This document shows positions 13,299 through 43,264 of a stretch of DNA of 64,000 nt, piece by piece. Both the position numbers and the translations under genes were made by a program. The notes beneath the pieces were generated by a model. The model saw only the letters and a list, made by a program, of their open reading frames with translations. It ran no database searches and was not told the origin of the DNA. Location of the stretch: assembly GCA_016209605.1 (NCBI GenBank), contig JACQVS010000106.1:6916-70915 (forward strand), read 5' to 3'. This stretch comes from Planctomycetota bacterium (lineage in GTDB: Bacteria > Planctomycetota > UBA8108 > JACQVS01). The first letter of the stretch is position 1; each line of letters starts with the position of its first letter.

Positions 13299-13378
13299 AT
13301 AATGCGGGCTTCGCCCGCAACCGAGCTATCCGCAACTTCTCCGCAAGAAGCGGAGAAGTTGCGGAGGAAAAATCTAAA
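13299..13378. repeat. Intergenic composite palindromic repeat, family A, copy 1 (forward orientation)
   Basis: taatgcgggcttcgcccgcaaccgagctatccgcaacttctccgcaAGAAgcggagaagttgcggaggaaaaat: a 6-bp hairpin plus a 16-bp hairpin. Near-identical copies at 22044, 26790 (reverse) and 43188 (reverse). Confidence 0.8.
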
Positions 13379-13434
13379 AAATCCTCTTCCCGATCCTTCT
13401 CCGGACCTTTTTCTAGACTTTTTTTGGACAGGGC

Positions 13435-15336
13435 TTACCAGCCGCTCTCCCCTACCTCCAGGTTTTTCTCCCAGACCCGATAGCACTCGGCGATTTGCGC
13501 CTCCAGATCGGCGATCTCCTTTTTCAGGCGCCGCATCGCCTCCGGGTTGAGATAGACCTCGGCTCTGGCGGTATCCTGATGCTTCTTCTGCAGCACCGCT
13601 TCCAGGGCCTCAATTTTCTGGAGCCACTTCTCCTCGCGAATCCGCGGCAGCGGGCTGCCTGCAGGCGGCCGGCGCGCCGCCGCCTTGGGCTTCTCGCGCC
13701 TGCTTTCCTCGCTGGCCTGCTTCTCCGCCTCGCGCCGGCGCCGGAGATCCTGGCGGTACTGCTCGAAGCCGCCGGTGAGTTCCCGCAGCCGGCCGTTTTC
13801 AACCACCAGGAAACGATCCGCCAGCCGTTCAATAAAATAACGGTCGTGGGTGACAAACACAACCGTTTCCGTAAAATCCTCCAGGCTGTGCTCCAGAGCT
13901 TCCCGGGAAGGGATGTCGAGATGAGTCGTCGGCTCATCCAGGACCAGGAGGTTGGCGCCGGAGAGCACCAGGCGCAGGAGCGCCAGGCGCGCCTTTTCGC
14001 CGCCGCTCAAGCTCTTCACCGGAAGGCGGATGCGGCTTTCCCGGAACAAGAACGCCGCCAGCAGGTTGCCTACCTGCAAGTGGGTCCATTTCGGAACCAG
14101 ATCGTGGATTTCCTCGAAGACCGGCCGATCGCTGCTCTCCTCCGTGGGCTCTTGCCGGTAATATCCAACCTTGGTTCGCGCTCCCCGGCGTACTCCCCCT
14201 GCCAGCTGGGGCAGCTCGCCGGCCATGGTGCGAAGCAAGGTGGTTTTCCCCGAGCCGTTCGTGCCCAGGATAGCCACCCGCTCCCGGCGCTGGAGGTTCA
14301 ACCAGACGTCCTGAATCACCGGCTGGTTCGCTCTAAAACCGCAGGCCGCTTCTTCCATGCTGATGACCTCGTCGCCGCCCCGCGCCGCCAGGGAAAAGGA
14401 GAACTGCGGGGCGTGGTCCTCCTGCCGCGGCGCCTCCAGAATCTCCATGCGCTCGAGTTTCCGGACCCGGGATTTGGCGCGGCTGGCGTTCTGCCCGTAA
14501 AAATTGCGGCGGATGAACTCCAGCTCGCGGGCAATCTCCTCCTGCTGCTCCTCGTAAAGCTTCTGCTGCAGGGCGATTTCCTCCGAGCGCTGGCGCACGT
14601 AGGCGTCGTAGTTGCCGCGGTAGGTGAATACCCGGCGTTCGCGGACTTCCAGGATGTATTGGGCGGCGCGGTTGAGCAGGTAACGGTCATGGGAGGAGAA
14701 GAGCAGGGTGGCCGGCGACTCGAGGAGGAACTCCTCCAGCCATTCCACCATCTCGATGTCGAGGTAGTTGAGCGGCTCGTCGAGGAGCAGGATGCCGGCA
14801 TCGGCGAAGATGATTTTAGCCAGAGCCACCCGCTTCTTCTCTCCGCCGCTGAGAGTGGCGAGGTCGCGGTCGCTCATCGCCGGCGCGATGCCCAAATGCC
14901 GGAAGATGAGATCGACCCGCCGCTCGCGGTCGCGCCCCCCCTCCTCGTCATACTGTTTGAGCAGCTGCCGGTGCCTCTCCACCAGGCGGTCCAGCCTGTG
15001 GGGATCGCTCTCGGACTCCATCTGGCGCTCGACCTTTTGAATGGCCTCGAGGAGGCTCCAGAGCGTGGGATGGGACTCTAGGACATGAGCGCGCCCCCGG
15101 CTGCCTTCGGGGAACTGCGGCTCTTGCGGCAGGTAAGAGAGGCGGCGCCCACGCGCCACCTGGACCTTCCCCTGGTCGGGGGCGTAGTTTCCCAGGATGA
15201 GGTTGAAGATTGTGGTCTTGCCGCAGCCGTTCGGCCCGATCAAGCCGACCCGCGCCCCTTCCGGGACCAGAAAGGAGGCCCCTTCGAAGAGCGGGTGATC
15301 GCCGATGGAGAAGTGGACGTTGTCGAAGAGGATCAC
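13435..15336 (-). CDS. ABC-F family ATPase (Uup/EttA-like, two ABC domains, C-terminal coiled coil)
   Basis: 633 aa; two Walker A sites (GPNGCGKTT, GTNGSGKTT), two LSGGE signatures, no membrane domain. Confidence 0.9.
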   Translation of the reverse strand: MILFDNVHFSIGDHPLFEGASFLVPEGARVGLIGPNGCGKTTIFNLILGNYAPDQGKVQVARGRRLSYLPQEPQFPEGSRGRAHVLESHPTLWSLLEAIQKVERQMESESDPHRLDRLVERHRQLLKQYDEEGGRDRERRVDLIFRHLGIAPAMSDRDLATLSGGEKKRVALAKIIFADAGILLLDEPLNYLDIEMVEWLEEFLLESPATLLFSSHDRYLLNRAAQYILEVRERRVFTYRGNYDAYVRQRSEEIALQQKLYEEQQEEIARELEFIRRNFYGQNASRAKSRVRKLERMEILEAPRQEDHAPQFSFSLAARGGDEVISMEEAACGFRANQPVIQDVWLNLQRRERVAILGTNGSGKTTLLRTMAGELPQLAGGVRRGARTKVGYYRQEPTEESSDRPVFEEIHDLVPKWTHLQVGNLLAAFLFRESRIRLPVKSLSGGEKARLALLRLVLSGANLLVLDEPTTHLDIPSREALEHSLEDFTETVVFVTHDRYFIERLADRFLVVENGRLRELTGGFEQYRQDLRRRREAEKQASEESRREKPKAAARRPPAGSPLPRIREEKWLQKIEALEAVLQKKHQDTARAEVYLNPEAMRRLKKEIADLEAQIAECYRVWEKNLEVGESGW

Positions 15337-15428
15337 GGGTTCATGAAAAAATTCAAGAGCTGCAGGTGACGAAAATGGAGATTATACTGGCAGGAATTCT
15401 GGGAGGGAATTCTCAATTCAAGGGTCAA

Positions 15429-15476
15429 GCCCATTAAATTTTCTGCGGCGCTGACGCCACAGAAAATTTAATGGGC
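15429..15476. repeat. 22-bp-stem hairpin (gcccattaaattttctgcggcg...cgccacagaaaatttaatgggc) in the 630-nt noncoding region
   Basis: Read directly; one mismatch, 4-nt loop. Confidence 0.7.
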
Positions 15477-15511
15477 AATAACAGGGAGGGAATTGACAAT
15501 CCTGGGATTAA

Positions 15512-15559
15512 GCCCGCTCGATTTTTTGCGGCGCGGACGCTGCAAAAAATCGAGCGGGC
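15512..15559. repeat. Second hairpin of the same architecture (gcccgctcgattttttgcgg...ctgcaaaaaatcgagcgggc), with compensatory base changes relative to the first
   Basis: Read directly. Outer stem cattaaa/tttaatg in copy 1 becomes gctcgat/atcgagc here, preserving pairing. A third GGCCCGT...ACGGGCC hairpin lies at 15580-15607. Confidence 0.7.
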
Positions 15560-15968
15560 AATAAATAAAATAATAAAAAGGCCCGTCACTGTCTCCAGCA
15601 ACGGGCCCATGGAACGTGGGTTGGGGGCGTTCTATAAAGCACTAGATAATGAGGTTGTCGGTAGCTTTTATCCTCGCGCTCCCCAGCGCTTCCGCATCGT
15701 CACCAGCGATCGGGCGCCTATGGCTTTCCCCTCTTTAACTCTTGTGGAGTCGACTGAACGTTTCTTTCAGACTCAAACGACGCGCAGGAGCGTCACTGAA
15801 GAATAGGTTGAAAAAAAAGCTGCGTCAAGAGTCAAAAATTGTCACCGGCGGGCCGCGGCCGCGGGTCAAAATTCGCTTCCAAACCGGGGAGGAAACGGCC
15901 GGGGTGTCTCTGATCTGGATGCTTTTGAAGCGTATGCCAGCACTGGATGACCGGTAATCCCCCCGATC

Positions 15969-17582
15969 TTAGCTGCTCTCCAGAGGAAGCAGCACCAGGC
16001 GCGCCCAGAGGATGCCTTCCTGCTTCTCCAGGTCGTTCACCACCTCCGGCGGCACCGGGTCATCGAGGTTGAGGAGGGCGATGGCGGTGCCGCCGCTGCG
16101 GTCGCGGCCAAGGGACATGTAGGAGATGTTCACCTGATGGGAAGCGAGGACATTGCCGATCACGCCGATCATGCCGGGCTTGTCCTTGTTCTTGACGAGC
16201 AGCAAGCGCCCTTCGAGCACCGCATCGAAATGATAGTCATCGAGAGACACCAACCGCAGCCCTTTCTGGCCGCGGATGGTGCCTCCCAACTCGCGCTTTC
16301 CGGCGGTGTCCTCGACGCCGATCTTCACCAGCTGGTGGAAGTACTTGCTCTTCCCCTCGCTGGCCTCCTCCACCACCAGCCCCATCTCGCTCGCCAGGTG
16401 ATGGGCATTGACGGGATTCACCGGCTGGGCCGAGCGGTCCTTGATGAAGCCGCACAGCGCGGCAGAGGAAAGGTAGCGCTGGATCTTGCTGTCAAAGAGG
16501 TCACCATAAAAGCCAATGCGGATACGCGCCGGATTGCTCTCGAGGATCTGCGCTTGCAGGAGGCCCAGGCCGTAAGCCAGATCGTAGTAGGGCTTCACCT
16601 CATCGCGCAGCTCGGGCTCCAGGGAGAGGGTGTTTACCGGGCTGCTGAGCTTGCCGTGGACGAAGTAGTCGACGATCTGCCGGGCGGCGGCGATGGCGAC
16701 GTTCTTCTGCGCCTCCTTGGTCGAGGCGCCGAGGTGCGGCGTGCAGATCACCTTGGGGTGCTTGATCAAATCGCTCATCTCCGGCGGCTCCTTGGCGAAG
16801 ACGTCGATCGCCGCTCCCCCGATGCTGCCGCTCTCGAGCGCCTCGAGAAGCGCCGCCTCATCGACGATGCCGCCGCGGGCGCAGTTGATGAGCCGCAGGC
16901 CCGGCTTGGCCTTGCTCAACACCTCCTTGGAAAGCAGGTTTCTGGTCTCGGGCACGAGGGGAACGTGGATGGTGACGAAATCCACCATGCTCAGCAGATC
17001 TCCCATGGACGGGGCCATCTGCACCCCCAGATCCTCGGCGACCTTGGGCGAGACGAAAGGATCGAAGCCGATGGCCTTCATGCCCAGGCCGGTGGCCATT
17101 TGAATCACCTGCCGGCCGATCTTGCCGAGGCCCACCACCCCCAGAACCTTGCCTTGCAGCTCGGTCCCGACATACTTGGAGCGCTCCCACTTGCCCTCGC
17201 GCATGGACGTGCAGGCCTGGGGGATATTGCGGGCCAGGGACACCAGCATGCCGATGGTATGCTCGGCGGCGGAGCGGACGTTCCCCTCCGGCACGTTCTG
17301 CACCACCACCCCCTTCCGGGTGGCCGCGGCGACGTCGATATTGTCCACTCCGACTCCCGCCCGGACGATGATCTCCAGGTGGTCGCAGGAAGCCAGGAAC
17401 TTGGCATCGACCTTGGTCTCGCTGCGGACGATCAAGCCGTGGGCCTTCTTGACGTGCTTGAGCTTTTCATCCAGCTCCAGCCCCGGCTGGTTCTCCACTT
17501 GAACCGCCGATTGCTTCTCCAGGATGGCCAGGGCCTCGGGCGAGAGCGGATCGGCGATAAAAAGGCATTTTTTGCGCGTCAT
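15969..17582 (-). CDS. serA: D-3-phosphoglycerate dehydrogenase with C-terminal ACT domain
   Basis: 537 aa; 2-hydroxyacid dehydrogenase NAD-binding GxGxxG (GLGKIGRQV), catalytic R/E/H, ACT regulatory tail. Confidence 0.92.
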   Translation of the reverse strand: MTRKKCLFIADPLSPEALAILEKQSAVQVENQPGLELDEKLKHVKKAHGLIVRSETKVDAKFLASCDHLEIIVRAGVGVDNIDVAAATRKGVVVQNVPEGNVRSAAEHTIGMLVSLARNIPQACTSMREGKWERSKYVGTELQGKVLGVVGLGKIGRQVIQMATGLGMKAIGFDPFVSPKVAEDLGVQMAPSMGDLLSMVDFVTIHVPLVPETRNLLSKEVLSKAKPGLRLINCARGGIVDEAALLEALESGSIGGAAIDVFAKEPPEMSDLIKHPKVICTPHLGASTKEAQKNVAIAAARQIVDYFVHGKLSSPVNTLSLEPELRDEVKPYYDLAYGLGLLQAQILESNPARIRIGFYGDLFDSKIQRYLSSAALCGFIKDRSAQPVNPVNAHHLASEMGLVVEEASEGKSKYFHQLVKIGVEDTAGKRELGGTIRGQKGLRLVSLDDYHFDAVLEGRLLLVKNKDKPGMIGVIGNVLASHQVNISYMSLGRDRSGGTAIALLNLDDPVPPEVVNDLEKQEGILWARLVLLPLESS

Positions 17583-17609
17583 GGTTCTGTTTCCAGGTTC
17601 CGGGCGCCG

Positions 17610-18860: not shown

Positions 18861-18878
18861 AATCTGAAAAGGGCAGAG

Positions 18879-19130
18879 CTACTTGACTTGCTTTTGCTGC
18901 TTGATGTAGTTGATCGCGTCGCCGACGGTTTTGATCTTCTCGGCATCCTCGTCGGGGATGTTCAAGTCGAAAGCCTCTTCAAACTCCATCACCAGCTCGA
19001 CAATGTCGAGGGAGTCGGCCCCCAGGTCGGTGACGAAGCTGGTCTCGGGCTTGACCTTTTCCTTGTCCGCATCCAACTGCTGAGCAACAATTTCGATAAC
19101 TTTGTCCTCGATTTTCTTATTGTCCTCCAT
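18879..19130 (-). CDS. acpP: Acyl carrier protein
   Basis: 83 aa; phosphopantetheine attachment LGADSLD motif. Confidence 0.95.
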
Positions 19131-19196
19131 CGATTTGCTCCTTCCAATCTGTTGTTTTTCGATTCAACTCACGTCCACTTCTCGCTAACCTTCCTC

Positions 19197-19970: not shown

Positions 19971-19973
19971 ACT

Positions 19974-20960: not shown

Positions 20961-21041
20961 GGTTTCAAGCCATGCCAGGTTTCATTCCTTCAGAAGCGAA
21001 CTCGGCGGTGCTGGCCCTCCCAATTCATCGACCGGAAATCC

Positions 21042-22028
21042 TCACCAGCGGACCAGGTTATACCCCCAGGTCATGCCCGCGCCGAAGGCGACCAGGAGCA
21101 CGAGGTCGCCGCGCTTCAGCCGGCCCTCCTGGCAGGCCTCGGAGAGCGCGATGGGCACCGACGCGGCCGAGGTGTTGCCGTAGCGGTCGAGGTTGAGGTA
21201 CAGCCTCTCCTCGGGAAGCTCCAGCTTCTTCAGGGCGGCCTCGATGATGCGGTAGTTGACCTGATGCGGGATGATGAGCTGCAGATCCGCCATGCTCAGG
21301 CGGTTGCGGATCAGCGCCGTCTCGATCAGATCGACCATGGCCTTGGTGGCGAACTTGAACACTTCCTTGCCCTGAAGCTGCAGGAAGTGCTGGCGCTGCT
21401 CCACCGTCTGGTGGCTGGCGGGCAGGCGCGATCCACCGGCCGGAATGGAAATCAGATCGGCGGCCGTCCCGTCGGCGCGCAGCAGGCTGTCGATGATCCT
21501 GGAGGAGCCTCCTTCCCCCACCCGGGAGATGACCGCCGCCCCGGCGCCATCGCCGAACAGGATGCAGGACGAGCGGTCCGTGAAGTCGACGAACCGCGAC
21601 AGCGTCTCGGCTCCGATGAGGAGCACGTTTTGATAGAAGCCGCTTTGCACGAAGCTCGCCGCCACCGCGGTGCCGTAGACGAAGCCGGTGCAGGCGGCGC
21701 TGAGGTCGAAGGCGCAGGAGTTCCTGGCGCCGAGGGCGGCTTGAACGTAAACGGACACGGCCGGGCAGACGGTGTCGCCGGTCACCGTGGCCACGATCAC
21801 GGCGTCGATCTCGCCGGGCGCGACCTTGGCGCTCTCCAGGGCCCGGCGCGCCGCCCCGGCGGCCAGATCGCTGGTGTTCTGGCCCTCGGCGGCGATGCGG
21901 CGCTGCCGGATGCCGGTGCGCTGGAGGATCCATTCATCGCTGGTGTCGACCATTTTTTCGAGATCGGAATTGGTCAACACCCGTTCGGGGAGCGCTGCAC
22001 CGGTGCCGGCAAAGTATGCTGAGTACAT
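21042..22028 (-). CDS. fabH: 3-oxoacyl-ACP synthase III (start moved to the internal Met; the tracked start at 22079 is a spurious extension through the repeat element)
   Basis: KAS III motifs (AACTGF, NLDRYGNTSAASVPIAL). The tracked N-terminal MRIARLRAKPALRNEGF is the translated repeat, which recurs in other frames and ORFs at each repeat copy. Confidence 0.9.
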   Translation of the reverse strand: MYSAYFAGTGAALPERVLTNSDLEKMVDTSDEWILQRTGIRQRRIAAEGQNTSDLAAGAARRALESAKVAPGEIDAVIVATVTGDTVCPAVSVYVQAALGARNSCAFDLSAACTGFVYGTAVAASFVQSGFYQNVLLIGAETLSRFVDFTDRSSCILFGDGAGAAVISRVGEGGSSRIIDSLLRADGTAADLISIPAGGSRLPASHQTVEQRQHFLQLQGKEVFKFATKAMVDLIETALIRNRLSMADLQLIIPHQVNYRIIEAALKKLELPEERLYLNLDRYGNTSAASVPIALSEACQEGRLKRGDLVLLVAFGAGMTWGYNLVRW

Positions 22029-22043
22029 AAAGCCCTCATTCCG

Positions 22044-22123
22044 TAATGCGGGCTTCGCCCGCAACCGAGCTATCCGCAACTTCTCCGCAAGATGCGGAGA
22101 AGTTGCGGATGAAAAATTTAAAT
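22044..22123. repeat. Family A palindromic repeat, copy 2 (forward), inserted between plsX and fabH inside the FAS II cluster
   Basis: Same 80-nt core as 13299-13378, with loop AGAT. Confidence 0.8.
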
Positions 22124-23137
22124 TTTCGACAACGCTTGCAGCTCATGGGTGATTCTCGAGTTCAAGTCCATGGCGGTCATCCGTTCAGCGCAGCGGACGG
22201 CGTTGGAAACCGCCTTGGCATCGGAGCGGCCGTGGGCAATGATGACGTTGCCGTTGACTCCGAGGAGCGGGGCGCCGCCGTACTCCGAGTAGTCGAATCT
22301 CGACTCGAAGGCGCTGAAGGACCTCTTGAACGTCTCCCCGATCCCCGGCGCATTCGGCATGGACTTGATGCCGTCCTTGACCAGGGAGGCGAAGAGCTGG
22401 AACAGGCGCTCGGCCAGCCCTTCGGAGACCTTGAGAACGATATTGCCCACGAAGCCGTCGCAAACCACCACATCGACGTTCCCCTTGAACAAGTCCGCCC
22501 CTTCGACGTTGCCGATGAAATTGAGGCGGGTCTCGTTGAAGAGGGAATGGGTCATCTTGGCGAGGGTATGGCCTTTTTCATCCTCCTCGCCGACGTTCAA
22601 GAGCCCGACTCGTGGGCTCTTGACGTTGAGGATCTCCTCGGCGTAGATGGTCGCCATGAGGCCGTACTGGATCAAGTGCTCCGGCTTGCAGTAAACGTTG
22701 GCCCCCACGTCGATGATGACCACCGGGTTGTGGCCGGTGTGGAAGGCCACGGCAATGCCGGCCTTCTTGACCGCCGGCAGGCGGCCGAGGAGGAGCGAGG
22801 CGGCGGCCACGCACGCGCCGGTGTTGCCCGCGCTCACCATCGCGGCGGCCTTTTGCTCCCGCACCATGCGGATCGAAATTTCGATCGACGAGCCGCGCTT
22901 CTTGGTCAGCGCCTCGACGGGGCTGTCGGACATGGTGATGACGTGGTCCGCCGCCACCACATCGATGTTCGGGCCGTTCCACTCGGCCGCGGCCAGCTCC
23001 CGGCGGACCTCTTCTTCCCGGCCCACCAGGTGGAGGAGCACGTTTTCCATCTTGGCAGCCGCCAGAACCGCGCCCTTGACCACTTCACGGGGGGCCAGGT
23101 CCCCGCCCATTGCATCGACTGCAATTGCTAAGGACAA
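22118..23137 (-). CDS. plsX: Phosphate:acyl-ACP acyltransferase
   Basis: 339 aa; N-terminal IAVDAMGGD motif. Confidence 0.93.
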   Translation of the reverse strand: MSLAIAVDAMGGDLAPREVVKGAVLAAAKMENVLLHLVGREEEVRRELAAAEWNGPNIDVVAADHVITMSDSPVEALTKKRGSSIEISIRMVREQKAAAMVSAGNTGACVAAASLLLGRLPAVKKAGIAVAFHTGHNPVVIIDVGANVYCKPEHLIQYGLMATIYAEEILNVKSPRVGLLNVGEEDEKGHTLAKMTHSLFNETRLNFIGNVEGADLFKGNVDVVVCDGFVGNIVLKVSEGLAERLFQLFASLVKDGIKSMPNAPGIGETFKRSFSAFESRFDYSEYGGAPLLGVNGNVIIAHGRSDAKAVSNAVRCAERMTAMDLNSRITHELQALSKI

Positions 23138-26170: not shown

Positions 26171-26754
26171 GACTGGAAAAGGCCCTTCCCCAGGGGCCGG
26201 TAAACTGGCCCGGCCGGGGTCAAGGTGCTTGAAAACAGTATCATACCATCCACATCTATCGTTGGCGGGCCGGCGGAAATCATTCCTGGCCGCTCGGTGA
26301 AAACCTTCTCCCAGCCGGCGGCCCTCTCGTGGCGCGGATTGCGGCCGAAGGTCAAGTGGGGAGTCCAGGGGCGGTCCTCCTTGGGAAATCCCAGGCCCGC
26401 CAGCCCTCTTTCCAGCTCCGCCTGGAGGCGGATGACCCGGTCGAGGGCCTCGCCCGGCTGGAGGGCCAGCCAGAAGACCCGGGGGGCGTCGCGGCGGCCA
26501 AAGGATCCCGGCTCGCCGGCCGCGAGCGCAAGCGGCTTCTCCGCCCGAGCCGCCGCCTCGAGGAGCGCGAGGATCGCCGGGACCTGGTCCGGGCGCGTCG
26601 CTCCCAGGAAGCAGAGGGTCAAGTGGATGTTCTCCGGCTTGACCCAGCGGACCTTCGGGTACGCAGCCTTGAGCGCGGCCAGGGCCGGCTCCAGCCAGGC
26701 GCGCAGGGGGGCGCCGATGTCGATGGCAACGAAAGTGCGCAGCTCGTCGGGCAT
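26167..26754 (-). CDS. thpR: RNA 2',3'-cyclic phosphodiesterase (2H family, ThpR/LigT)
   Basis: 195 aa; two H-x-T-x motifs (HLTLCF, HLTFGR). Confidence 0.85.
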   Translation of the reverse strand: MPDELRTFVAIDIGAPLRAWLEPALAALKAAYPKVRWVKPENIHLTLCFLGATRPDQVPAILALLEAAARAEKPLALAAGEPGSFGRRDAPRVFWLALQPGEALDRVIRLQAELERGLAGLGFPKEDRPWTPHLTFGRNPRHERAAGWEKVFTERPGMISAGPPTIDVDGMILFSSTLTPAGPVYRPLGKGLFQS

Positions 26755-26789
26755 GATGATTTTCCCGGAATCCTCGCTCAGGCTGCCAT

Positions 26790-26866
26790 TAGATTTTTCC
26801 TCCGCAACTTCTCCGCATCCTGCGGAGAAGTTGCGGATAGCTCGGTTGCGGGCGAAGCCCGCATTA
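26790..26866. repeat. Family A palindromic repeat, copy 3 (reverse orientation)
   Basis: Reverse complement matches the 13299 core; loop GGAT. Confidence 0.8.
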
Positions 26867-26872
26867 TCAGCT

Positions 26873-27778
26873 TCATTCGATCCTCAGCAACTCGCAAAAC
26901 CTCTGGAAGCGGTGCTCCACCTCCCCCGCCTCGGCCTCGAGCAGCCGGCGGACCCCGAACTCCTCGACGCACAGGGAGGCGACCACCGCTCCGTGGGCGA
27001 GGGCGGCCTTGAAGCCGGCGCCGTCCAGGCGCTTCGAGCGCGCCAGGTAGCCCATGAGGCCGCCGGCGAAGCTGTCGCCGGCGCCGGTGGGGTCCTTGAC
27101 GTCGTGGACGGGGAAGGCGGGCAGGGGGACGACCTGCTCGCGGGTGAAGAGCATCGCCCCGTTCTCCCCCTTCTTGATGATGGCGCGCCCCGGCCCGAGG
27201 TCGAGGATTTCCTTTCCCGCCTCCACCAGGTTGCCGGCGCCGGTGAGGAGCAGGGCTTCCGAGTCGTTGATCACCAGGCCATCGATGCGCTCGAGGAGGT
27301 CGAGCAAGTCCTGGCGCTGGGTCTGGATCCACAGGTCCATGGTGTCGGCCATGACGAAGCGGGGGCTCCTCACCTGCTCGAGGACGCTCATCTGGGTGCG
27401 CGGGGCGCTGTTGGCGAGAAAGACAAACTCGGTGTCGCGGAACGTGGCGGGCAGCTTCGGCTGGAAGTCCTTGAGAACGTTGAGCTCGACGGAGAGGGTC
27501 TCGCGCCGGTTCATGTTGTCGAAGTACTCCCCCGCCCAGCGGAAGGTCTTCCCCCCCGCCACGGTTTCGAGGCCGGCGAGATCGATCCCCCGGCGGGCGA
27601 GCAGGCGGCGGTTCTCCTCCGGAAAGTCGCCCCCCACCACCCCCACGAGGCGCACCGGCCCGTGGAAGCTCGCCGCCAGCGAAAAATAGACGGCGGCGCC
27701 GCCCAGGGTGTCGTGGAGCTGCCCTGCCGGGGTCTTGATGCTGTCAAAGGCAACGGAGCCGGCGACGAGAAGGGACAT
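26873..27778 (-). CDS. PfkB-family carbohydrate/nucleoside kinase
   Basis: 301 aa; ribokinase-fold GG motif near the N-terminus and DPTGAGDSFAGG anion-hole motif. Confidence 0.85.
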   Translation of the reverse strand: MSLLVAGSVAFDSIKTPAGQLHDTLGGAAVYFSLAASFHGPVRLVGVVGGDFPEENRRLLARRGIDLAGLETVAGGKTFRWAGEYFDNMNRRETLSVELNVLKDFQPKLPATFRDTEFVFLANSAPRTQMSVLEQVRSPRFVMADTMDLWIQTQRQDLLDLLERIDGLVINDSEALLLTGAGNLVEAGKEILDLGPGRAIIKKGENGAMLFTREQVVPLPAFPVHDVKDPTGAGDSFAGGLMGYLARSKRLDGAGFKAALAHGAVVASLCVEEFGVRRLLEAEAGEVEHRFQRFCELLRIE

Positions 27779-27910
27779 GAAGCCTCCTGGGGACTGTCCA
27801 TGGGAGCCGATAAACCAGGTAAAACCGTGAAATTATACGGTCCCGCCGCTCTCCGTCAATAAACCCTCAACTTCATTGCGGCCGGACCCCGGCCGTGCTA
27901 TCCTTTTATA

Positions 27911-28094
27911 AGAGCCTGTCCCAAAAATCCATTCGGGCTTCGGCCGGCTGCAAAGGCGCCATGCTGCGTTGGGCCTCCTCGCCTTATTTCTCCGCCTAAT
28001 AAGGCTTCGTCGGTCCGCCTTGCCTGGCGCCTTTTCGCTCGGCCTCGGGCCTCGAAGCGACTTTCGGGACAGGCTCGAAGCGGAAGAAACAGGC
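27911..28094. mobile_element. MITE-like element, family B, copy A (terminal inverted repeats AGAGCCTGTCCC / GGGACAGGCTC, plus a duplicated end fragment gaaacaggc)
   Basis: About 75% identical to the copies at 29761-29966 and 34135-34301. Shared core cttcggccggctgcaa.ggcgcc...gggcctcct.gcc. Confidence 0.65.
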
Positions 28095-29760: not shown

Positions 29761-29966
29761 AGAGCCTGTTTCAGTAGACCATTCGGCCACCTCTGCAAGA
29801 GCACGGGGCCGGCTGCGAAGGCGCCAGCCGGCGTTGGGCCTCCTAGCCTTATTTCTCCGGTTAATAAGGCGGCGTCGGCCCGCCTTGTCTGGCGCCTTCT
29901 CGCCGGGCACCGCCCGGCGAAAGCCGGGTGGTCGCGGGCCTCGAAGCGCCTACCGAAACAGGCTCT
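29761..29966. mobile_element. MITE-like element, family B, copy B (terminal inverted repeats AGAGCCTGTTTC / GAAACAGGCTCT)
   Basis: 206 nt. The ~20-bp terminal inverted repeats match copy C. Internal ccttatt-tctccgg-aataagg hairpin. Confidence 0.7.
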
Positions 29967-32576: not shown

Positions 32577-34130
32577 TTACCATGAAATGAGCACCTGCGC
32601 CTTGAGGGCGTGCAGCTCCTTGAAGTCCGGGTTCAAGAAGCGGTAATCTTTCTCGTAATCGTAAGCGATCAAAAAACTCAGTATGCTCATGGGCCGCCAG
32701 CGGACATGGGCCTGAAGCGCCCAGGCGTTCAGGCCGGCGAGGTCCGCGAAGCGGTTTGAGTACTCATAGTTGCGCAGCTCGACCGCCGTTCCCACCGCCA
32801 CCTTGCGAGCCCAGTCCTGCTCGAGCCGCGCCTCGAGGCCGACGAAGCGCGGCTCGCCGTCGCCGGTCACGTCGCTGATAAAGCGAGGATCATCCCGGTC
32901 GTAATACTGCCGCCTCGGGAGGTCGGTATCGAGGTAGCGGATGACGGCGCGGCCGGTCAAGCCCTCCCAGGGGAAGTGCAGCGAGTCAAGGCCGCCCCAG
33001 ACCTCGCGCCAGTCGGAGTTGTAGGCATCGCGGTCCGAGCGGCCGCGCACCCAGTGGCCGGTCCCTCCCAGGAGGAGGCCGAAGGATCCGGTGATCTCCT
33101 GGCGGACCTCGAGGCTCGCTTCATCGTAAGGGTCGATCTCTCCGAGGTTGAAGTGGCGGTCATGGTCGCGGTCCTCGACCGGGGCGCGCTCCGAGAAGGT
33201 GTAGTCGAAGGTGAAGTCGTTCGAGGACCGCCCCAGCCGGCCATAGTAGCTTCCGCGCGCCTCCAGCCCCCAGCCGGACTCCTGGAAGACCGCCTCGAGC
33301 TGCGCCGACTCGGGATGCTCGTTCACCTGGCGGTAGAGGAGCTGCATCGAGGCCAGCGGCCCCAGCCTCTGGAGGAGCGAGGCTTTCAGGGAGTTGTCGA
33401 GGTAATAGACGTCGGCAAACTCGAACTCGGTCCCCTGGGCGGGAAAATACTTGAGCGCGCCGCCGTAAAGGCCGGTCCTGGACACGCTGGGAAAGTAAGT
33501 CGCCCGCGCCCCGGCGAAGGCGTCGATCTCCACCGGCCGGTCAAAGAGCCCCAGCCCGCGGACATGGATCCGGCCGCCGTCGAAGTGGACGTACTCGGCC
33601 CCCTCGAAGTACTGCCGGCCCCCGGTGAACTCGAGATGCCTCTGGAGAAGGAGCGCTTTGAAGTTCAAGGCGCCGAGCTGCGCCTGGTCGCCGCCCGGAA
33701 AGCGGTCGTAAGCGCCGAGCGATTCGTTTCCAGCCGCGGTGCCGTCGAGGTCGGTGAAACCGCGGATGGAAAACTCGGTGTCCAGGCCCTGGCACCAGCC
33801 GCTCTGGGTTGCCGGCACGATCAGGTCATGAGTGCGCACCGCGAAGTACTGGTCGAGGTCGTGGTCTTGGTTGCGGCGGCGGCGGTCCTCCAGCTCGGCG
33901 GCGAACTGCCGGTCGGCGGGGTCGATGTCCGGAAAGTTGAAACGGAAGCGTCCGAAGCGAAAGAACTGCGCCTGATAAGCGGCCCGATAGGTGAGGTGGA
34001 GCTTCCCCTTGAGGGTCGGATCCTTCCACAGCTCCGCCGCCCCGGGCTTCTTCTCCTCCGCCGGGCCCGGCCGGCATGAAAGGAACAGCGCCGCCAGGAA
34101 CGCGAACAGCCCGGCCAGTCGCGCTGCCAG
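32577..34130 (-). CDS. Outer-membrane beta-barrel protein (putative porin partner of the upstream multiheme cytochrome). Start re-placed after the MITE; the tracked start at 34367 reads through the element
   Basis: Lipoprotein-type signal sequence (RLAARLAGLFAFLAALFLSC) immediately after the MITE. Alternating amphipathic beta-strand pattern; C-terminal aromatic residue (…VLISW). Only a CTG is available as a start at 34130, so the start is uncertain. Confidence 0.55.
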   Translation of the reverse strand: MAARLAGLFAFLAALFLSCRPGPAEEKKPGAAELWKDPTLKGKLHLTYRAAYQAQFFRFGRFRFNFPDIDPADRQFAAELEDRRRRNQDHDLDQYFAVRTHDLIVPATQSGWCQGLDTEFSIRGFTDLDGTAAGNESLGAYDRFPGGDQAQLGALNFKALLLQRHLEFTGGRQYFEGAEYVHFDGGRIHVRGLGLFDRPVEIDAFAGARATYFPSVSRTGLYGGALKYFPAQGTEFEFADVYYLDNSLKASLLQRLGPLASMQLLYRQVNEHPESAQLEAVFQESGWGLEARGSYYGRLGRSSNDFTFDYTFSERAPVEDRDHDRHFNLGEIDPYDEASLEVRQEITGSFGLLLGGTGHWVRGRSDRDAYNSDWREVWGGLDSLHFPWEGLTGRAVIRYLDTDLPRRQYYDRDDPRFISDVTGDGEPRFVGLEARLEQDWARKVAVGTAVELRNYEYSNRFADLAGLNAWALQAHVRWRPMSILSFLIAYDYEKDYRFLNPDFKELHALKAQVLISW

Positions 34131-34134
34131 CCTA

Positions 34135-34301
34135 AGAGCCTGTTTCAGTAGCCCTCCTGGCTTCGGCCGGCTGCAAGTGCGCCATACTGCGTTGCGCCTC
34201 CTCGCCGATACTCTCCGACTGTATCGCCTACGTCGGCGCGCCTTGTCTGGCGCGCTTTCGCTCGGCCTCGGGCCGACGGATGACCTACCGAAACAGGCTC
34301 T
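34135..34301. mobile_element. MITE-like element, family B, copy C, inserted between the multiheme cytochrome gene and its downstream beta-barrel gene
   Basis: Terminal inverted repeats ctAAGAGCCTGTTTCAGTAG / CTACCGAAACAGGCTCTaaaa. Internal cgatac-tctccgact-gtatcg hairpin, with a compensatory change relative to copies A and B. Confidence 0.7.
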
Positions 34302-34363
34302 AAAATCCGGCTCCAGCACCGGCCGGGGCGGCCAAAAACACGGTTGAGGAGGGAGGGATCGGC

Positions 34364-35104
34364 TCATGGGGGGCTATGGCAGGGGGCGCAATTGCCCTGG
34401 AAGGAGTGGCAGGTCAAGCAGGCGCGCACCTTGAGCCGCGCCACTTGCTTGTGGCCGCCCGCCCGGAAGGTCGGCGTATGATCGGGCGGCGGCTGGCGGT
34501 GGCAGTTCTCGCAGAAATCGGAGCTGTGGCAGGTGGCGCAGGAGCGGCGGTCCTGGATGGCATACCGGCCGTGGGTGGAGCGCAGGAAGCGGAGGTTGTG
34601 GGACTGCGGCTTCCAGGTGCTGTGGCACTGCTGGCACTCGGACTCGAGGTGGCACAGAGAGCACTTGTAGGCCTCGCGGCGGGCCATGTCCTTGTGATGG
34701 CCGGTCCACGCCGCGGTGTGGAAGCGCGGCTTGCGCTCGCGGCGGTTCTCCACATGGCAGGTCTCGCAGGCCTGCGATTTCTCCACCCCGTTGTGGCACT
34801 GGAAGCAGGTCTTCATCGGCGGCAGGCCTCCGGCGAGCACTTCCTCCCGAGAGGCGCTCTGGCCGTGGCAGGTCGAGCAGTCGAGCTTGCGGTGCAGCTC
34901 GTGGGAGAAGATGATCTCTTGATGAGAATAGGGGGGGTGGTTCTGAGAGAAGGAAAGCGGCGCCAGGGAACCTTCCTCGAGTTGATCGATGTCGATGATG
35001 GTGCAGCCCAGGACGAGAACTGCCGCCACGAGGACGCAGGCGAAGGGAACCCGGAAACTTGACAAATTCCGAGAGAAAAGTAAAGGCAACACCATCTCCT
35101 TCAC
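34364..35104 (-). CDS. Periplasmic or lipid-anchored multiheme c-type cytochrome (9 CxxCH sites)
   Basis: 246 aa; CSTCH, CFQCH, CETCH, CSLCH, CQQCH, CATCH, CENCH, CLTCH, CAPCH. N-terminal signal with a possible lipobox (VLGC). Its stop overlaps the ATG of the downstream ORF (ATGA). Confidence 0.85.
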   Translation of the reverse strand: MKEMVLPLLFSRNLSSFRVPFACVLVAAVLVLGCTIIDIDQLEEGSLAPLSFSQNHPPYSHQEIIFSHELHRKLDCSTCHGQSASREEVLAGGLPPMKTCFQCHNGVEKSQACETCHVENRRERKPRFHTAAWTGHHKDMARREAYKCSLCHLESECQQCHSTWKPQSHNLRFLRSTHGRYAIQDRRSCATCHSSDFCENCHRQPPPDHTPTFRAGGHKQVARLKVRACLTCHSFQGNCAPCHSPP

Positions 35105-35234: not shown

Positions 35235-35714
35235 TTATCGGCCGACAGGGCTACCCCCAAGGCCATCGGTATGCCGGTCCATGGCCTCGTTGACCAGCCG
35301 GTCGCAGCGCTCGTTCTCCCGGTCCCCGGAGTGCCCCTCGACCCACCTCCACTCCATCTGGTGGCGGCGGGTCAGCTCCAGGATGCGCTCCCAGAGGTCC
35401 CGGTTGAGGACGGGCTTCTTGCTGGCGGTCCTCCACCCCCTCTCCACCCACCGCGGCAGCCATTCCGTGATGCCGCGCCGCAGGTACTGGGAGTCGGTGG
35501 TCAAGATGACCTGGCAAGGCCTCTTGAGCTGCTCCAGCGCCCGGATGGCGGCAGTCAGCTCCATGCGGTTGTTGGTGGTGTGAGGCTCGACGCCCGAGAT
35601 CTCCTTGCGGAGCGCCCCCGAGACGAGCACGGCCGCCCAGGCCCCCAGCCCCGGATTGCCCCGGCAACCGCCGTCGGTGTAAATCAGGACTTTCTTATTA
35701 CCCCGTTTCATCAC
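35235..35714 (-). CDS. rnhA: Ribonuclease HI
   Basis: 159 aa; [23 protein letters not shown] catalytic motifs. Confidence 0.9.
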
Positions 35715-35803
35715 AACTCCCGCATTTAAACAACAAGCCTCAGTTCAGAAAAACAATCACCTGGCCGTTTGAGAAGATCTAGCGTTTGAGAAGATTTAGC
35801 ATA

Positions 35804-39300: not shown

Positions 39301-39437
39301 GGATCCTCTCCTGTCACATTCCGTAACCCTTTTCTCTTAATCCAAAACCACTTATACCTTTTACTTGCTTATTTTACAGTTTACACCTTTTCTGGACTTT
39401 TGAGGAGGTAAAATCCGGCAAAAAGCCGGAGCTCACA

Positions 39438-41141
39438 TTAGATGCTCGCAATCGTCTCCTTCACGACTTCCTCGATGGTGGTGATCCCGTCATAAATGTG
39501 CAGGAGGCCGCTTTCGCGGAGGGTGCGCATGCCTTCTTCCTTGGCCACTTGCCGGAGCTCGGCCGTTGAGCCGCTCTTCATGATGGTCTCCTTGATGCGG
39601 TCGCTTGCCAGCATGATCTCGAGAACGGCGATACGGCCCTTGTAGCCGCTGCCGTTGCAGCGCTTGCAGCCTTTGCCGTAGTAGAACTGCTTCCCCTCGA
39701 CATCGGAGGGGGTCAGCTCCAGCTCGTAAAGCTCCTTGTCGGAGGGGTCGTACGGCATCTTGCACTCGGCGCAGATGCGCCGCACCAGCCGCTGGGCCAG
39801 GATGCCTTCCAGGGTGGCGGTGATCAAGAAAGGCTCCAGGCCAAGGTCGACGAGGCGGGTCACCGCTGAAGGCGCATCGTTGGTGTGCAGGGTGGTGAAA
39901 ACGATGTGTCCCGTCAAGGAAGCCTCCACGGAGATCTGCGCGGTCTCCAGGTCGCGCACCTCGCCGACCAGGATGATGTCCGGGTCCTGGCGCAGGATGG
40001 AGCGCAGGCAGTTCGCGAAGGTGACGCCGATTTCCTCGTTGATCTGCACCTGGACAATGCCCTCGAGGTCGTACTCCACCGGGTCCTCCGTGGTGATGAT
40101 CTTGACATCGATGGTATTGGCCTCATTGAGGGCTGAATAGAGGGTGGTGGTCTTGCCGGAGCCGGTTGGGCCGGTCACCAGGATGATGCCGTCGGGCTTG
40201 GCGATGAGGTTGCGGAAGATGCGCAGCTCATCTGACCTGAAGCCGAGCTGGTCGAGGTTGAGGCTGACGTTGGCGCGGTCGAGAACACGCAGCACCACGC
40301 TCTCGCCGAACATGGTCGGCAGGGTCGAGACGCGCAAGTCGACGGGATTGCCGCCGATATTGAGCTCGATGCGCCCATCCTGCGGCAGGCGGGTTTCGGC
40401 GATGTCCAGGTTGGAGAGCACCTTGACGCGGGAGATGAGCGCCCGGGCCAGCTGGATGGGGGGCGGCATCATTTCGTAAAGCACGCCGTCGACGCGGTAC
40501 CGCACCTTGAACTCGTGCTCGAAGGGCTCGAGGTGGATGTCGGAGCCGCGGTCGCGCACCGCCTGGAGGAGGACCATGTTGAGGAGCTTCACGACCGGGG
40601 CGGCGTTCACATCCTTCTCCAGCTGCTCGATGTTGATGTCTTCCCGCTTCGAGGTGATATCCAGCTTCCCATCGCCCATTTGACTGAGGTAATCACTGAC
40701 GCCGCTGCTCTTGTTATAATAGCGCTCGATGCATTGATGGATCGCCTCCTTGCCGCCGACCAGGGCCTTGAAGGCCGGGATCTTGGGCAGGGAGAAGCGC
40801 AAGTCCTCGAGGACGTTCAGGTTGGTCGGGTCGGCAATGGCCACCGTCAGGGTGTGGCCGTCGTAAAGCAAGGGCATGACCTCGAGGGTCTCGGCAGTGT
40901 TCTGATCCACCAGGTCCAGGACCTCGGGTGCGATCTCCGCCTTGGAGAGGTCGGCGAACTCCATGCCCGCCTGCTTGGCCAGGGCGCGGGTCAGATCGGC
41001 ATCGGTGATGGCGCCGCTCTCCATCAGGATCTGTCCGATAGCTCCGCCACTGTCCTTCTGCTTCTTGAGAGCTTGCTGGATATCAAACTCTTTCAAGATG
41101 TTCATTTCCTTGAGGATTTGACCGATAAAGTGTCGAGCCAT
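39438..41141 (-). CDS. GspE/PilB-family secretion ATPase (paralog 1) with N-terminal GspE_N/MshEN-like domain
   Basis: 567 aa; Walker A GPTGSGKTT, Asp and His boxes, tetracysteine CAEC…CKRC zinc motif. Confidence 0.9.
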   Translation of the reverse strand: MARHFIGQILKEMNILKEFDIQQALKKQKDSGGAIGQILMESGAITDADLTRALAKQAGMEFADLSKAEIAPEVLDLVDQNTAETLEVMPLLYDGHTLTVAIADPTNLNVLEDLRFSLPKIPAFKALVGGKEAIHQCIERYYNKSSGVSDYLSQMGDGKLDITSKREDINIEQLEKDVNAAPVVKLLNMVLLQAVRDRGSDIHLEPFEHEFKVRYRVDGVLYEMMPPPIQLARALISRVKVLSNLDIAETRLPQDGRIELNIGGNPVDLRVSTLPTMFGESVVLRVLDRANVSLNLDQLGFRSDELRIFRNLIAKPDGIILVTGPTGSGKTTTLYSALNEANTIDVKIITTEDPVEYDLEGIVQVQINEEIGVTFANCLRSILRQDPDIILVGEVRDLETAQISVEASLTGHIVFTTLHTNDAPSAVTRLVDLGLEPFLITATLEGILAQRLVRRICAECKMPYDPSDKELYELELTPSDVEGKQFYYGKGCKRCNGSGYKGRIAVLEIMLASDRIKETIMKSGSTAELRQVAKEEGMRTLRESGLLHIYDGITTIEEVVKETIASI

Positions 41142-41236
41142 GGGCGATTTCTCTTGAGCGGTTTAAGTTTCACAAGCAACTTCGAGTTGACGGAAACGCG
41201 GGCCATCTTCCTGCGGAACGCTGGCCAGATAAAAGT

Positions 41237-42925
41237 TCAGATCTCCATTTCGGCGCGATGGGTGATGCGCAGAACCTCCTCGATGGTGGTCATGCCGGCA
41301 AGCACCTTGCGGGCCGCATCCTCCTGCAGGGTAACCATGCCCTCGGAGCGGGCCTTGGCGCGGATCTCCTGGGTCGGCTTCTTCTTGAAGGACATATCCC
41401 GGAGGTCAGGGCTCATTTCCATGAGCTCGTAGACGCCTTTCCGCCCCTTGTATCCCTGATTGCTGCAGTTGGGGCAGCCGACCGGCTTGTACAGGGTCAG
41501 GCCCTCGAGCTTGTCGCGGGTCAAACCGATGGAGCGCATCTCCACATCGCTCGGCTCGTAGGGGGCCTTGCAGTGGGGGCAGAGGATGCGCACCAGGCGC
41601 TGGCCCATGATCGCCATGATCGCCGACGCCACCAGGAAGGGCTTCACGCCCATATCGATCAGGCGGGTGATGGCCGATGGGGCGTCGTTGGTGTGCAAGG
41701 TGCTGAACACCAGGTGACCGGTGAGCGCCGCTTGAATGGCGATGTCGGCCGTCTCGCGGTCGCGGACCTCGCCCACCAGGATGATGTTGGGGGCCTGGCG
41801 CATCATGGCGCGAAGGATGCGCTGAAAGGTCAAGCCGATCTCGTGGCGCACCTCCGACTGGTTGATGCCCGGCAAGTTGTACTCGATGGGATTTTCCGCG
41901 GTGATGATCTTGACATCGGGCCGGTTGAGTTTCTTGAGGGCGGCGTACAGGGTCGTGGTCTTGCCGGAGCCGGTCGGCCCGGTGACCAGGAAGATGCCGT
42001 TCGGGCGCTTGATGATCTTCTGAAACCGCTGGTAGTCGCTCTCGTGGAAGCCCAGCTCTTCCAAATCCACCAGCCCTTTCTCCTTGTCGAGGATGCGCAT
42101 GACGACGCTCTCGCCGTGGCGGCCCGGCAGCGCGGAGACGCGCAAGTCGATCTCGCGCCCCATGACGTTGATCTTGATGCGTCCGTCTTGAGGCCGCCGC
42201 TTCTCGGCCATGTCCATCCTGGACATGATCTTGATGCGCGAGAGGATGGGGCCCTGCAGCTTCTTGGGCGGATTCTCCTTCTCCAGGCAGACGCCGTCGA
42301 TGCGGTAGCGGATGCGCACGCGGTTCTCGAAGGGCTCGACGTGGATGTCGCTGGCCCGCTCTTTCAGGGCGTTGGAAATGAGCTGGGTCACGTACTTGAT
42401 GACGGGGGCGTCGTTGGCCTCGGCATCCTCGCCGGCGTACTCGCCGCGCCCCACCACCACCTGCTCGCCATCGGCCCCCAGGACGTCCTTCAAGTTGCCG
42501 GTCAAGCGGTAGTACTGGTCGAGGGCCTCTTCAATCGCCTCCGGCGTGGCGATGGCGCAGTCAACTTGCTGATTGAGCAGGAAGCGCAGGTCATCCAGGG
42601 TGGCCAGATCGAAGTCCGACATGGCGACGATCAGCTTGCCGTTTTGCTTGACCACCGGAATCACCTTGTGCTCGATGGCCACTTCCTTGGGTACCAGGCC
42701 GATCACCGGCTGCTTGATTTCGGCCTTGCTCAAGTCGGCGAATGGCAGCCCGTAATGGCGGGCCAGGGCGCGGCTCACCGATTTCTGGTCGCAGGCGTTG
42801 ATCTTGACCAGGGCTTCGCCGATGCGGCAGCTGTTTGCTCTAGAGTACTCAAGCGCCTTGGTGATCTGGTCATCGTTGACGGCGCCCATGGCCTTCAAAA
42901 TCTGTCCAATCGATTTTTTGTTCAA
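41237..42925 (-). CDS. GspE/PilB-family secretion ATPase (paralog 2)
   Basis: 562 aa; same architecture as paralog 1 (GPTGSGKTT, CPHC…CPNC). A divergent tandem duplicate. Confidence 0.9.
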   Translation of the reverse strand: MNKKSIGQILKAMGAVNDDQITKALEYSRANSCRIGEALVKINACDQKSVSRALARHYGLPFADLSKAEIKQPVIGLVPKEVAIEHKVIPVVKQNGKLIVAMSDFDLATLDDLRFLLNQQVDCAIATPEAIEEALDQYYRLTGNLKDVLGADGEQVVVGRGEYAGEDAEANDAPVIKYVTQLISNALKERASDIHVEPFENRVRIRYRIDGVCLEKENPPKKLQGPILSRIKIMSRMDMAEKRRPQDGRIKINVMGREIDLRVSALPGRHGESVVMRILDKEKGLVDLEELGFHESDYQRFQKIIKRPNGIFLVTGPTGSGKTTTLYAALKKLNRPDVKIITAENPIEYNLPGINQSEVRHEIGLTFQRILRAMMRQAPNIILVGEVRDRETADIAIQAALTGHLVFSTLHTNDAPSAITRLIDMGVKPFLVASAIMAIMGQRLVRILCPHCKAPYEPSDVEMRSIGLTRDKLEGLTLYKPVGCPNCSNQGYKGRKGVYELMEMSPDLRDMSFKKKPTQEIRAKARSEGMVTLQEDAARKVLAGMTTIEEVLRITHRAEMEI

Positions 42926-43187
42926 GGGGATCTCCTCAACTCAAATCCCATGAGAAGATGGCTCGAAATATTCAGAGAGGGAGTCCGCCCGCCGGCAAAC
43001 CTCTCTCGCAGTCACTTGCTCCAAAGATTACGGCGAACACGAATGGCGAAAATTTCATGCCGAGATCGAGCTCGCTAAGTGAATAACATCTTTTTTCTGC
43101 TACTTATCGAGGTGCAGGGAGGCCTCGGTAAACGGTCGGCCATAACAAGTAGTATACCGCCGCCACCCCCGCGGTCAATAGTTCAAA

Positions 43188-43264
43188 TAGATTCTTCCTC
43201 CGCAACTTCTCCGCAGCCTGCGGAGAAGTTGCGGATAGCTCGGTTGCGGGCGGAGCCCGCATTA
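43188..43264. repeat. Family A palindromic repeat, copy 4 (reverse orientation)
   Basis: Reverse complement matches the 13299 core; loop GGCT. Confidence 0.8.

Follow-up and report, generated by a model that had tools for sequence, protein, structure and literature searches.

Does a hairpin that recurs in the spacers between bacterial genes serve those genes, or has it arrived there by its own mobility? The question is raised by a 64,000-nt stretch of DNA from a Planctomycetota bacterium (GCA_016209605.1, contig JACQVS010000106.1, forward-strand positions 6,916 to 70,915; hereafter the window), in which four intergenic spacers hold closely similar copies of a short sequence that folds into two hairpins, one of the copies lying between plsX and fabH. 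With a probability of roughly 80%, we read this repeat as a family of 77-nt non-autonomous mobile intergenic hairpin elements, belonging with repetitive extragenic palindromes (REPs), their hairpin-forming doublets (REPINs) and palindrome-associated transposable elements (PATEs), and spread in a narrow lineage of uncultured Planctomycetota. The family is a new one, of a known kind of small mobile repeat similar to REPs or miniature inverted-repeat transposable elements (MITEs). Counted in favour of mobility are copies far beyond chance, empty sites, a copy at a non-orthologous position, loops that drift while stems and linker stay identical, and a 2:2 orientation.

Coordinates of the element are positions in the window, and copies are given as 77-nt cores. 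Comparisons of full copies take the four window copies together with one from a relative (contig L084, see below), and tallies over six copies add a diverged variant on a metagenome contig, L001. The window copies and their neighbours are as follows.

13300-13376, copy 1, reference form on the minus strand: big hairpin 13329-13365, small hairpin 13303-13319, covariance-model score 108 bits; between genes for an ABC-F ATPase (stop 13435) and an NtrC-type sigma-54 activator (start 13286), both on the minus strand and assigned with Pfam.
22044-22120, copy 2, reference form on the minus strand: big hairpin 22073-22109, small hairpin 22047-22063; between plsX (TAA stop 22118-22120, overlapping the element end) and fabH (true ATG 22028), minus strand.
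26790-26866, copy 3, reference form on the plus strand, inverted relative to transcription: big hairpin 26801-26837, small hairpin 26847-26863; between genes for a pfkB-family kinase (stop 26873) and a ligT/2',3'-cyclic phosphodiesterase (start 26754), minus strand.
43188-43264, copy 4, reference form on the plus strand: big hairpin 43199-43235 (18 bp pairable), small hairpin 43245-43261 with loop GGA instead of GAA; between genes for signal peptidase I (stop 43290) and a GspE/PilB-type ATPase (open reading frame (ORF) start 42925), minus strand.

Repeat finding and MAFFT alignment returned the same four copies that the initial annotation had listed, at 13299 and 22044 as forward and at 26790 and 43188 as reverse, with lengths of 77–84 nt and identities of 92–96%. 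The window contains the 16-mer GCGGAGAAGTTGCGGA eight times (0.15 occurrences expected), arranged in four inverted pairs with 5-nt spacing, and a 29-nt left module occurs four times (none expected). All four copies are intergenic, between co-directional genes that Pfam places uniformly on the minus strand, in agreement with the earlier description; the window as a whole also has plus-strand genes. Orientation relative to transcription is therefore 2:2, and transcripts of the flanking genes carry the element one way at copies 1 and 2 and the other way at copies 3 and 4. The insertion sites are A/T-rich spots in short intergenic spacers, and every insertion leaves the ribosome-binding site of the downstream gene intact, so expression of the downstream genes would be preserved at the surviving copies.

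In short, the reference form reads TAGATTTTTCC, big hairpin, linker TAGCTCGGT, small hairpin and TTA. In full, these parts are an A/T-rich leader, (T)TAGATT(T/C)TTCC; the 37-nt big hairpin, TCCGCAACTTCTCCGC-N5-GCGGAGAAGTTGCGGA; the 9-nt linker; the GC-rich small hairpin, TGCGGGC-G(A/G)A-GCCCGCA; and the terminal TTA. The big hairpin begins 11 nt from one element end and the small hairpin stops 3 nt from the other, and the heptamer CCGCAAC appears three times per element, in both arms of the big hairpin and next to the small one. Both strands are predicted to fold into two hairpins (RNA, −45 to −50 kcal/mol with z-scores of −5.7 to −7.3; DNA, z-score of about −9.5). The perfect 16-bp stem and the second hairpin stand as first described, and two dimensions need correction: the big loop has not 4 nt but 5, or 3 where the loop-end bases pair and extend the stem to 17 bp (up to 18 bp in copy 4), and the small stem, its T-A pair included, has 7 bp and not 6. 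On the left, the reference form is preceded by T-rich sequence and starts with TAG, or with TAA at plsX, where these bases are the stop codon; the flank and first bases of the six copies read TTTAG, TTTAA, ATTAG, AATAG, ATTAG and ATTAG, and T-TAG or T-TAA before the left end in 5/6 copies resembles a transposon-adjacent motif.

Variation among the copies is distributed very unevenly. Not one substitution was seen in the stems or the linker of the five full copies, a total of 275 sites made up of 32 big-stem, 14 small-stem and 9 linker positions per copy. The big loop is different in each of the five (TTCTT, ATCTT, ATCCT, AGCCT and AGAAT; 7 differences at 25 sites), and the concentration of change there relative to all non-loop sites is significant (Fisher's exact test, p ~1e-6). 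The remaining changes are one in the small loop (copy 4) and four in the leader, with window copies 2 and 4 among those altered; the big loop is variable as initially proposed, and it is not the only variable part. Judged by these sequences, the constancy of stems and linker fits sequence-specific recognition, and not neutral decay or a purely structural constraint. The asymmetric parts, namely leader, linker and small hairpin, are conserved equally in both orientations.

Comparison with a close relative provides the most direct view of mobility. The PlsX and LigT proteins of the window are identical to MBI4584243.1 and MBI4584246.1, and the nearest relative found is GCA_040961615.1, with protein identities of 90% (PlsX) and 84% (LigT), coding DNA 88–93% identical and differences at 13–21% of four-fold degenerate sites. 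About 7 kb of that assembly was sampled, on contigs L082, L084 and L085. The plsX-fabH site is empty there: on L082, stop and start are 11 nt apart, against 89 nt in the window, and the junction reads ...AAAACATAAGAGAGGGCTTTATG / ...GAAAACATAAGAGAGGGCTTTATGTACTCAGC with no element, where the window has ...GAAAATTTAA followed by the element and CGGAATGAGGGCTTTATGTACTCAGC. Also empty is the pfkB-ligT site, with 13 nt on L085 in place of window positions 26785-26872 (88 nt); BLAST alignments between the two break exactly at the element, and the junction is TGAGCCCTGAAATTCAAGCCTGAGGG... on L085 and TGAAGCTGA, element, ATGGCAGCCTGAGCG... in the window. The insertion between plsX and fabH that had been postulated from the window is thereby borne out, as is the view, drawn at first from orientation alone, that the repeat is a REP/MITE-like mobile element and not a terminator; to the empty sites in this ~90% identical relative are added the lack of a U-tract and of any terminator call.

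Elsewhere in this relative there is a complete copy, at a locus not orthologous to any of the window sites (L084, 1514-1590, between a flgJ-like ORF and flgN) and the only one in its sampled sequence. This copy is 98–99% identical to those of the window, with 1–3 differences in 72 non-loop positions where neutral divergence would give about 11 (probability of two or fewer differences, ~9e-4). The family is therefore not confined to the window, confinement having been named at the outset as an outcome that would count against mobility.

Beyond this pair of genomes the element is rare. The exact hairpin pattern gave no match in 185,579 GTDB species genomes, a set without the source assembly, none in IMG/VR viral contigs and a single one in JGI metagenomes, and blastn found no element in plasmids or phages. 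The JGI match, L001, is an unrelated 1.5-kb contig of lower GC content bearing the diverged variant, in which leader, big hairpin and small GC hairpin are laid out alike; the leader and 14 bp of the big stem are shared, and the small GC hairpin is a different one. The variant starts at a small ORF's stop codon, and a canonical terminator comes after it. A query of 5.8 billion proteins with the phantom peptides that the element encodes gave one true match, P0121, from the relative. In two more distant genomic loci, L002 and L083 (66–68% protein identity), the plsX-fabH spacer is unrelated and ~75–90 nt long, so these relatives do not polarise insertion against deletion, and no comparable repeats were seen in the 21 kb fetched around plsX. 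A covariance model, run with filters off on the window and with default filters on 1.3 Mb of fetched loci, recovered the known copies only and no degenerate ones; its weak matches at 15478-15569, 5936-6002 and 3095-3173 are other, unrelated hairpins and were rejected. Canonical REPs number tens to hundreds per genome; at the density seen here, four copies in 64 kb, the present family could reach the hundreds if the genome measures a few Mb. The linker/small-hairpin segment in its copy-4 form, GGTTGCGGGCGGAGC, is matched exactly over 15 nt at 3215-3229 in the waaA-secA spacer, within two tandem units that both open with TTGGGTTG followed by GC-rich sequence; the match may be a piece of the small-hairpin module or related to it.

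How would such an element move? Two hairpins near the ends, no terminal inverted repeat (TIR) and no clear target duplication make mobilisation in trans, through single-stranded DNA and by an enzyme of the HUH/Y1 type, most plausible. The enzyme would be a REP-associated tyrosine transposase (RAYT), an IS200/IS605 TnpA or a Planctomycetes-enriched 'class 3' TnpA-Y1 encoded elsewhere in the genome, and it would recognise the hairpins and the invariant linker. Constancy of stems and linker would then reflect the need to stay competent for transposition, with the loop bases free to change. Once inserted, the element would be co-transcribed with its neighbours, and so stable a hairpin could have incidental effects on the processing or stability of the mRNA. 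The TIR-less ends, the hairpin near each of them and the T-rich left flank agree with single-strand 'peel-and-paste' transposition by Y1/HUH enzymes, the logic on which IS200/IS605, PATEs and REP/RAYT systems are built (PMC10055086; PMC6006769; PMC3733652). Hairpins lie near either end of IS200/IS605 elements and PATEs, which lack a TIR and a target-site duplication (PMC10055086), and Y1 enzymes mobilise REP-like hairpins, the class 3 TnpA-Y1 genes, mainly of Planctomycetes, having atypical non-GTAG hairpins alongside (PMC6006769).

The big hairpin has the format of a REP stem-loop (~20–65 nt, a fully paired basal stem of 7–20 bp and a loop of 2–5 nt), and its 16–17-bp stem and 3–5-nt loop lie within the search rules published for REPs (PMC6006769), although the unit conserved here extends over 77 nt. 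The element does not have the make-up of a REPIN, given that the 16-nt arms are not palindromic REPs, the spacer is only 3–5 nt and the second hairpin is unrelated. With REPs and REPINs, moved by RAYTs in Pseudomonas, Enterobacteria and Stenotrophomonas, it has in common that they are short intergenic palindromes in both orientations, mostly in transcribed spacers, non-autonomous, present or absent between relatives and conserved within lineages. It differs in joining a second, unrelated hairpin by an invariant linker within 77 nt, where a REP is 20–40 nt or an inverted doublet, in a perfect stem where many REPs are bulged, in lacking a GT[AG]G/CGTC tag and in having no known RAYT gene, where a canonical REP has a cognate single-copy one flanked by copies (REPtron). 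REP/RAYT systems have also been reported in Rhodopirellula baltica.

With PATEs the element shares the absence of TIRs (its ends TAGATTTTTCC... and ...GCCCGCATTA are complementary only in TA), possibly the absence of target duplication, stem-loops near both ends and, probably, insertion next to a short A/T-rich motif. It departs from them in hairpins dissimilar in sequence and size, which is atypical, in a length below that of described PATEs, in having no known parental IS200/IS605 and in the even strand distribution of its four window copies (2:2). The empty sites, ...ACATAA|GAGAGG and ...GAATT|TCAGGG, fit insertion after a T-rich motif, with boundaries uncertain by 2–3 nt and flanks diverged by 15–20%. 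The class 3 TnpA-Y1 hairpins of Planctomycetes and Acidobacteria (Quentin et al. 2018, PMC6006769) come from the same phylum, likewise lack GTAG and can reach high copy number; the published ones have CnGA at the 5' foot and weaker structures, whereas ours has CCGA 4 nt from the foot and a very strong hairpin, and no repeat sequence in the supplements of PMC6006769 matches it. Correia/NEMIS, ERIC/IRU, RUP and BOX repeats, bacterial MITEs of the TIR type found within operons, are similar in being ~70–150 nt long, intergenic, co-transcribed, folded into stable hairpins, a source of annotation artefacts and able to alter mRNA processing, and Correia elements are flanked by TA; unlike our element, they have terminal inverted repeats recognised by DDE transposases. 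Helitron/IS91-like ends (A|T target, 5'-TC, 3'-CTRR) were also considered and rejected, as the flanks of copies 1 and 2 do not fit.

Several observations weigh against mobilisation by a Y1/HUH enzyme. A Pfam scan of ~50 ORFs, which takes up the initial suggestion of looking for an associated RAYT or IS200-like transposase, found no Y1/HUH transposase (PF01797-type) in the 64-kb window, where the sole recombinase is a XerC/D-type integrase (7001-7963). The REP tags GT[AG]G and CGTC are absent within 0–2 nt of the foot of either hairpin, the nearest match being ATAG, and the class 3 motif CnGA is likewise not at the foot. Next to the big hairpin stand GCTA or TTCC on the 5' side, depending on the strand, and TAGC on the 3' side; (N)TAA or CGGT comes before the small hairpin. 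Left- and right-end hairpins of IS200/IS605 usually resemble one another, and the two hairpins here are unlike each other. The 2:2 orientation among co-oriented genes shows no strand bias of the sort expected for lagging-strand insertion (n = 4); the GC skew of the window is flat and uninformative on replication direction. The exact hairpin, sought in DNA collections that do not include the source assembly, turned up once only, in JGI metagenomes. All copies, finally, start with TA(A) and end with TA(A), a possible target-site duplication that would point to a DDE mechanism.

A more specific and distinctly tentative idea is that the element may be the natural substrate of an uncharacterised hairpin-recognising single-strand transposase, for example a class 3 TnpA-Y1, which would read the perfect 16-bp stem and the linker instead of a GTAG-type guide, or else a TIR-less element that duplicates TAA. 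If the former were true, empty and filled sites would have been documented for a class-3-type repeat for the first time; the latter would imply an undescribed insertion mechanism.

The most serious competitor to the reading as a Y1-type hairpin element, and in our estimate an unlikely one, is a MITE of about 70 nt moved by a DDE transposase that duplicates TA or TAA (IS630/Tc1-like or IS5/Harbinger-like), the TAA ends being the duplication. The complementary strand indeed reads TAA-[core]-TAA in 5/6 copies (TAA...TAT in copy 4), and CCGCAAC stands inverted near both ends, 16–22 nt from one and 13–19 nt from the other, as a candidate transposase site. Terminal inverted repeats, required of a TIR-MITE, were not found beyond TA, however (TGCGGGCTTCG against GATTTTTCCTC), and neither empty-site junction holds a TAA (CTGA|AATTC; CTC-TTA-TG), weak evidence given that the flanks have diverged by 15–20% at neutral sites. 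A true TIR-MITE family flanked by TAA/TTA is also present in the window, so a TWA-duplicating transposase is probably active in the genome; the ends of the element nevertheless bear no likeness to the TIR of that family, GAGCCTGTTTC. The copies of this second, unrelated family are 165–204 nt long, with an 11–16-nt TIR, GAGCCTGTTTC(A/G)GTAG.

27912-28076, TIR-MITE copy
29762-29965, TIR-MITE copy
34136-34300, TIR-MITE copy

Their TAA/TTA flanks look like a 3-bp duplication. Over its full length each copy is an imperfect palindrome, and copies differ from one another in compensatory fashion (for example CCTTATT/AATAAGG versus CGATAC/GTATCG), and the family also creates false N-terminal extensions, for example in ORF 32577-34367. 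A third empty site in GCA_040961615.1 belongs to this family, the copy at 27912-28076 being absent from the pfkB-sua5 spacer of the relative (L085, ~375-385).

Improbable, in our assessment, is a non-mobile host module kept by selection and lost from the relative, be it a bidirectional terminator or attenuator without a U-tract, an RNase III or mRNA-stability hairpin, or a protein site built on the three CCGCAAC heptamers. Constant stems and linker with variable loops would suit a functional constraint, all copies lie in transcribed spacers between co-directional genes, a palindromic hairpin would work either way round, and the L001 variant is placed after a stop codon and ahead of a canonical terminator. 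Two precise absences and an extra non-orthologous copy in one relative are, however, explained more simply by mobility. The neighbouring functions are unrelated (fatty-acid synthesis, RNA repair, a sigma-54 regulator, a pilus ATPase and the flagellum), a function at the RNA level would not require the asymmetric parts to be equally conserved in both orientations, the element interrupts the tightly coupled plsX-fabH junction, and there is neither a U-tract nor a promoter match. An intrinsic terminator in particular was rejected: neither hairpin has a U-tract after it, the transcript continuing with UAGCUCGG or GGAAAAAU beyond the big hairpin and with AUUA or AACC beyond the small one, and one copy is inside the plsX-fabH junction. 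Terminator and promoter scans of the window made no call at any copy, and Rfam gave no match at the gathering score over the whole window, permissive thresholds adding only generic hairpin matches to miRNA models (≤20 bits).

That the copies are solo remnants, i.e., single ends or attachment/recombination sites of a larger insertion sequence, integrative element or cassette system since lost, is barely credible: many insertion-sequence families do leave solo ends, the window does hold a tyrosine recombinase (7001-7963) and the hairpin-rich structure loosely recalls attC and dif-like sites, but 5/5 full copies share two sharp boundaries and the 77-nt length, no longer version was found in the searched GTDB genomes, JGI metagenomes, IMG/VR, plasmids and phages, the recombinase has ordinary XerC/D architecture and lies at least 5 kb from any copy, and the copies are dispersed and not arrayed.

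The element also leaves a mark on gene prediction. It is open in four frames, one of them starting with ATG, and so generates phantom ORFs as well as false N-terminal and C-terminal extensions. Among mechanical ORFs of at least 60 aa that cross the copies, the recurrent peptides first noticed in at least six ORFs were found again, three with the first peptide below and two with the second, plus the FabH ORF.

13107-13550 (plus strand), 22046-23131 (plus strand) and 26778-27332 (minus strand), ORFs with phantom peptide RASPATELSATSPQ[DE]AEKLR
26225-27862 (plus strand) and 43079-43267 (plus strand), ORFs with phantom peptide AEKLRIARLRA[KE]PAL
22029-22079 (minus strand), false 17-codon N-terminal extension of FabH, LRIARLRAKPALRNEGF, within FabH ORF 21042-22079

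The real FabH start is the ATG at 22028, with a GAGGG ribosome-binding site upstream; FabH of the relatives begins MYSAYFAG (L082) and MYRAWFSG (L002), in agreement with this Met and with the earlier proposal that the 17 residues are spurious. In the relative, P0121 (GCA_040961615.1, L084 1216-1605) is a flgJ-like gene called, in the public annotation, through the element copy, with ~30 element-derived C-terminal codons ending in ...SSATSPQNAEKLRIARLRAKPAL.

Other features of the window were recorded alongside.

~15575-15830 (minus strand), putative small-RNA gene of ~220 nt between serA and the ABC-F gene; counterpart at L002 17396-17700
15505-15562 and 15430-15472 (minus strand), two tandem related hairpin units directly downstream of the putative small RNA
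5949-5988, single-copy perfect 18-bp hairpin in the pyrD-secA spacer, TGCAAATTTTGCGAGCTG-AAGA-CAGCTCGCAAAATTTGCA, no U-tract
39438-41162 and 41237-42925, tandem paralogous GspE/PilB-type ATPases, 71–87% identical over stretches, with 1808-nt spacing
45939-53701 (plus strand), cluster encoding SpoIIE-type phosphatases, a DUF4388/TPR/PQQ protein and two Roadblock/LC7 (MglB-like) proteins
58595-62275, RHS-repeat protein of 1,226 aa

The putative small-RNA gene runs from a sigma-70-like promoter, TTGACG-17-TATTCT (15828-15800), to a strong intrinsic terminator (15608-15579) whose stem shows compensatory changes. Its promoter, an internal GGAGGGGAAAGCC box and the 3' GAACGCCCCCAACCCACGTTCCA with terminator are kept after serA in L002, where PlsX is 68% identical; it matches no Rfam family, the best hit, SdsR at 24 bits, being below the cut-off of 38. 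The tandem units downstream each consist of TTATTGCCC, a 13–14-nt arm, the loop GCGTC(C/A)GCGCC, the complementary arm and GGGCTT; bases and loops are conserved, and the inner stems are wholly different yet perfectly paired (17–18 bp). Several other long perfect intergenic hairpins occur in the window, and the one at 5949-5988, in the style of the big hairpin of the element with another sequence, may belong to a further family with copies beyond the window. The ABC-F ATPase gene (13435-15336), between serA and the NtrC-type regulator gene, is absent from the syntenic JGI contig L083, as is the pfkB-family kinase gene between sua5 and ligT; copies 1 and 3 of the element adjoin these lineage-specific genes.

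For practice, the finding matters mainly for gene annotation and challenges no current concept. Masking the element would improve the annotation of metagenome-assembled genomes from this lineage, and repeats of this kind tend to break short-read assemblies. For the biology of the organism, it shows that small elements have moved recently in an uncultured Planctomycetota lineage, two families having been active after a split of ~15% synonymous divergence, and it supplies clean pairs of empty and filled sites, including an insertion into the normally tightly coupled plsX-fabH junction. The element thereby offers a defined candidate substrate for finding the responsible transposase.

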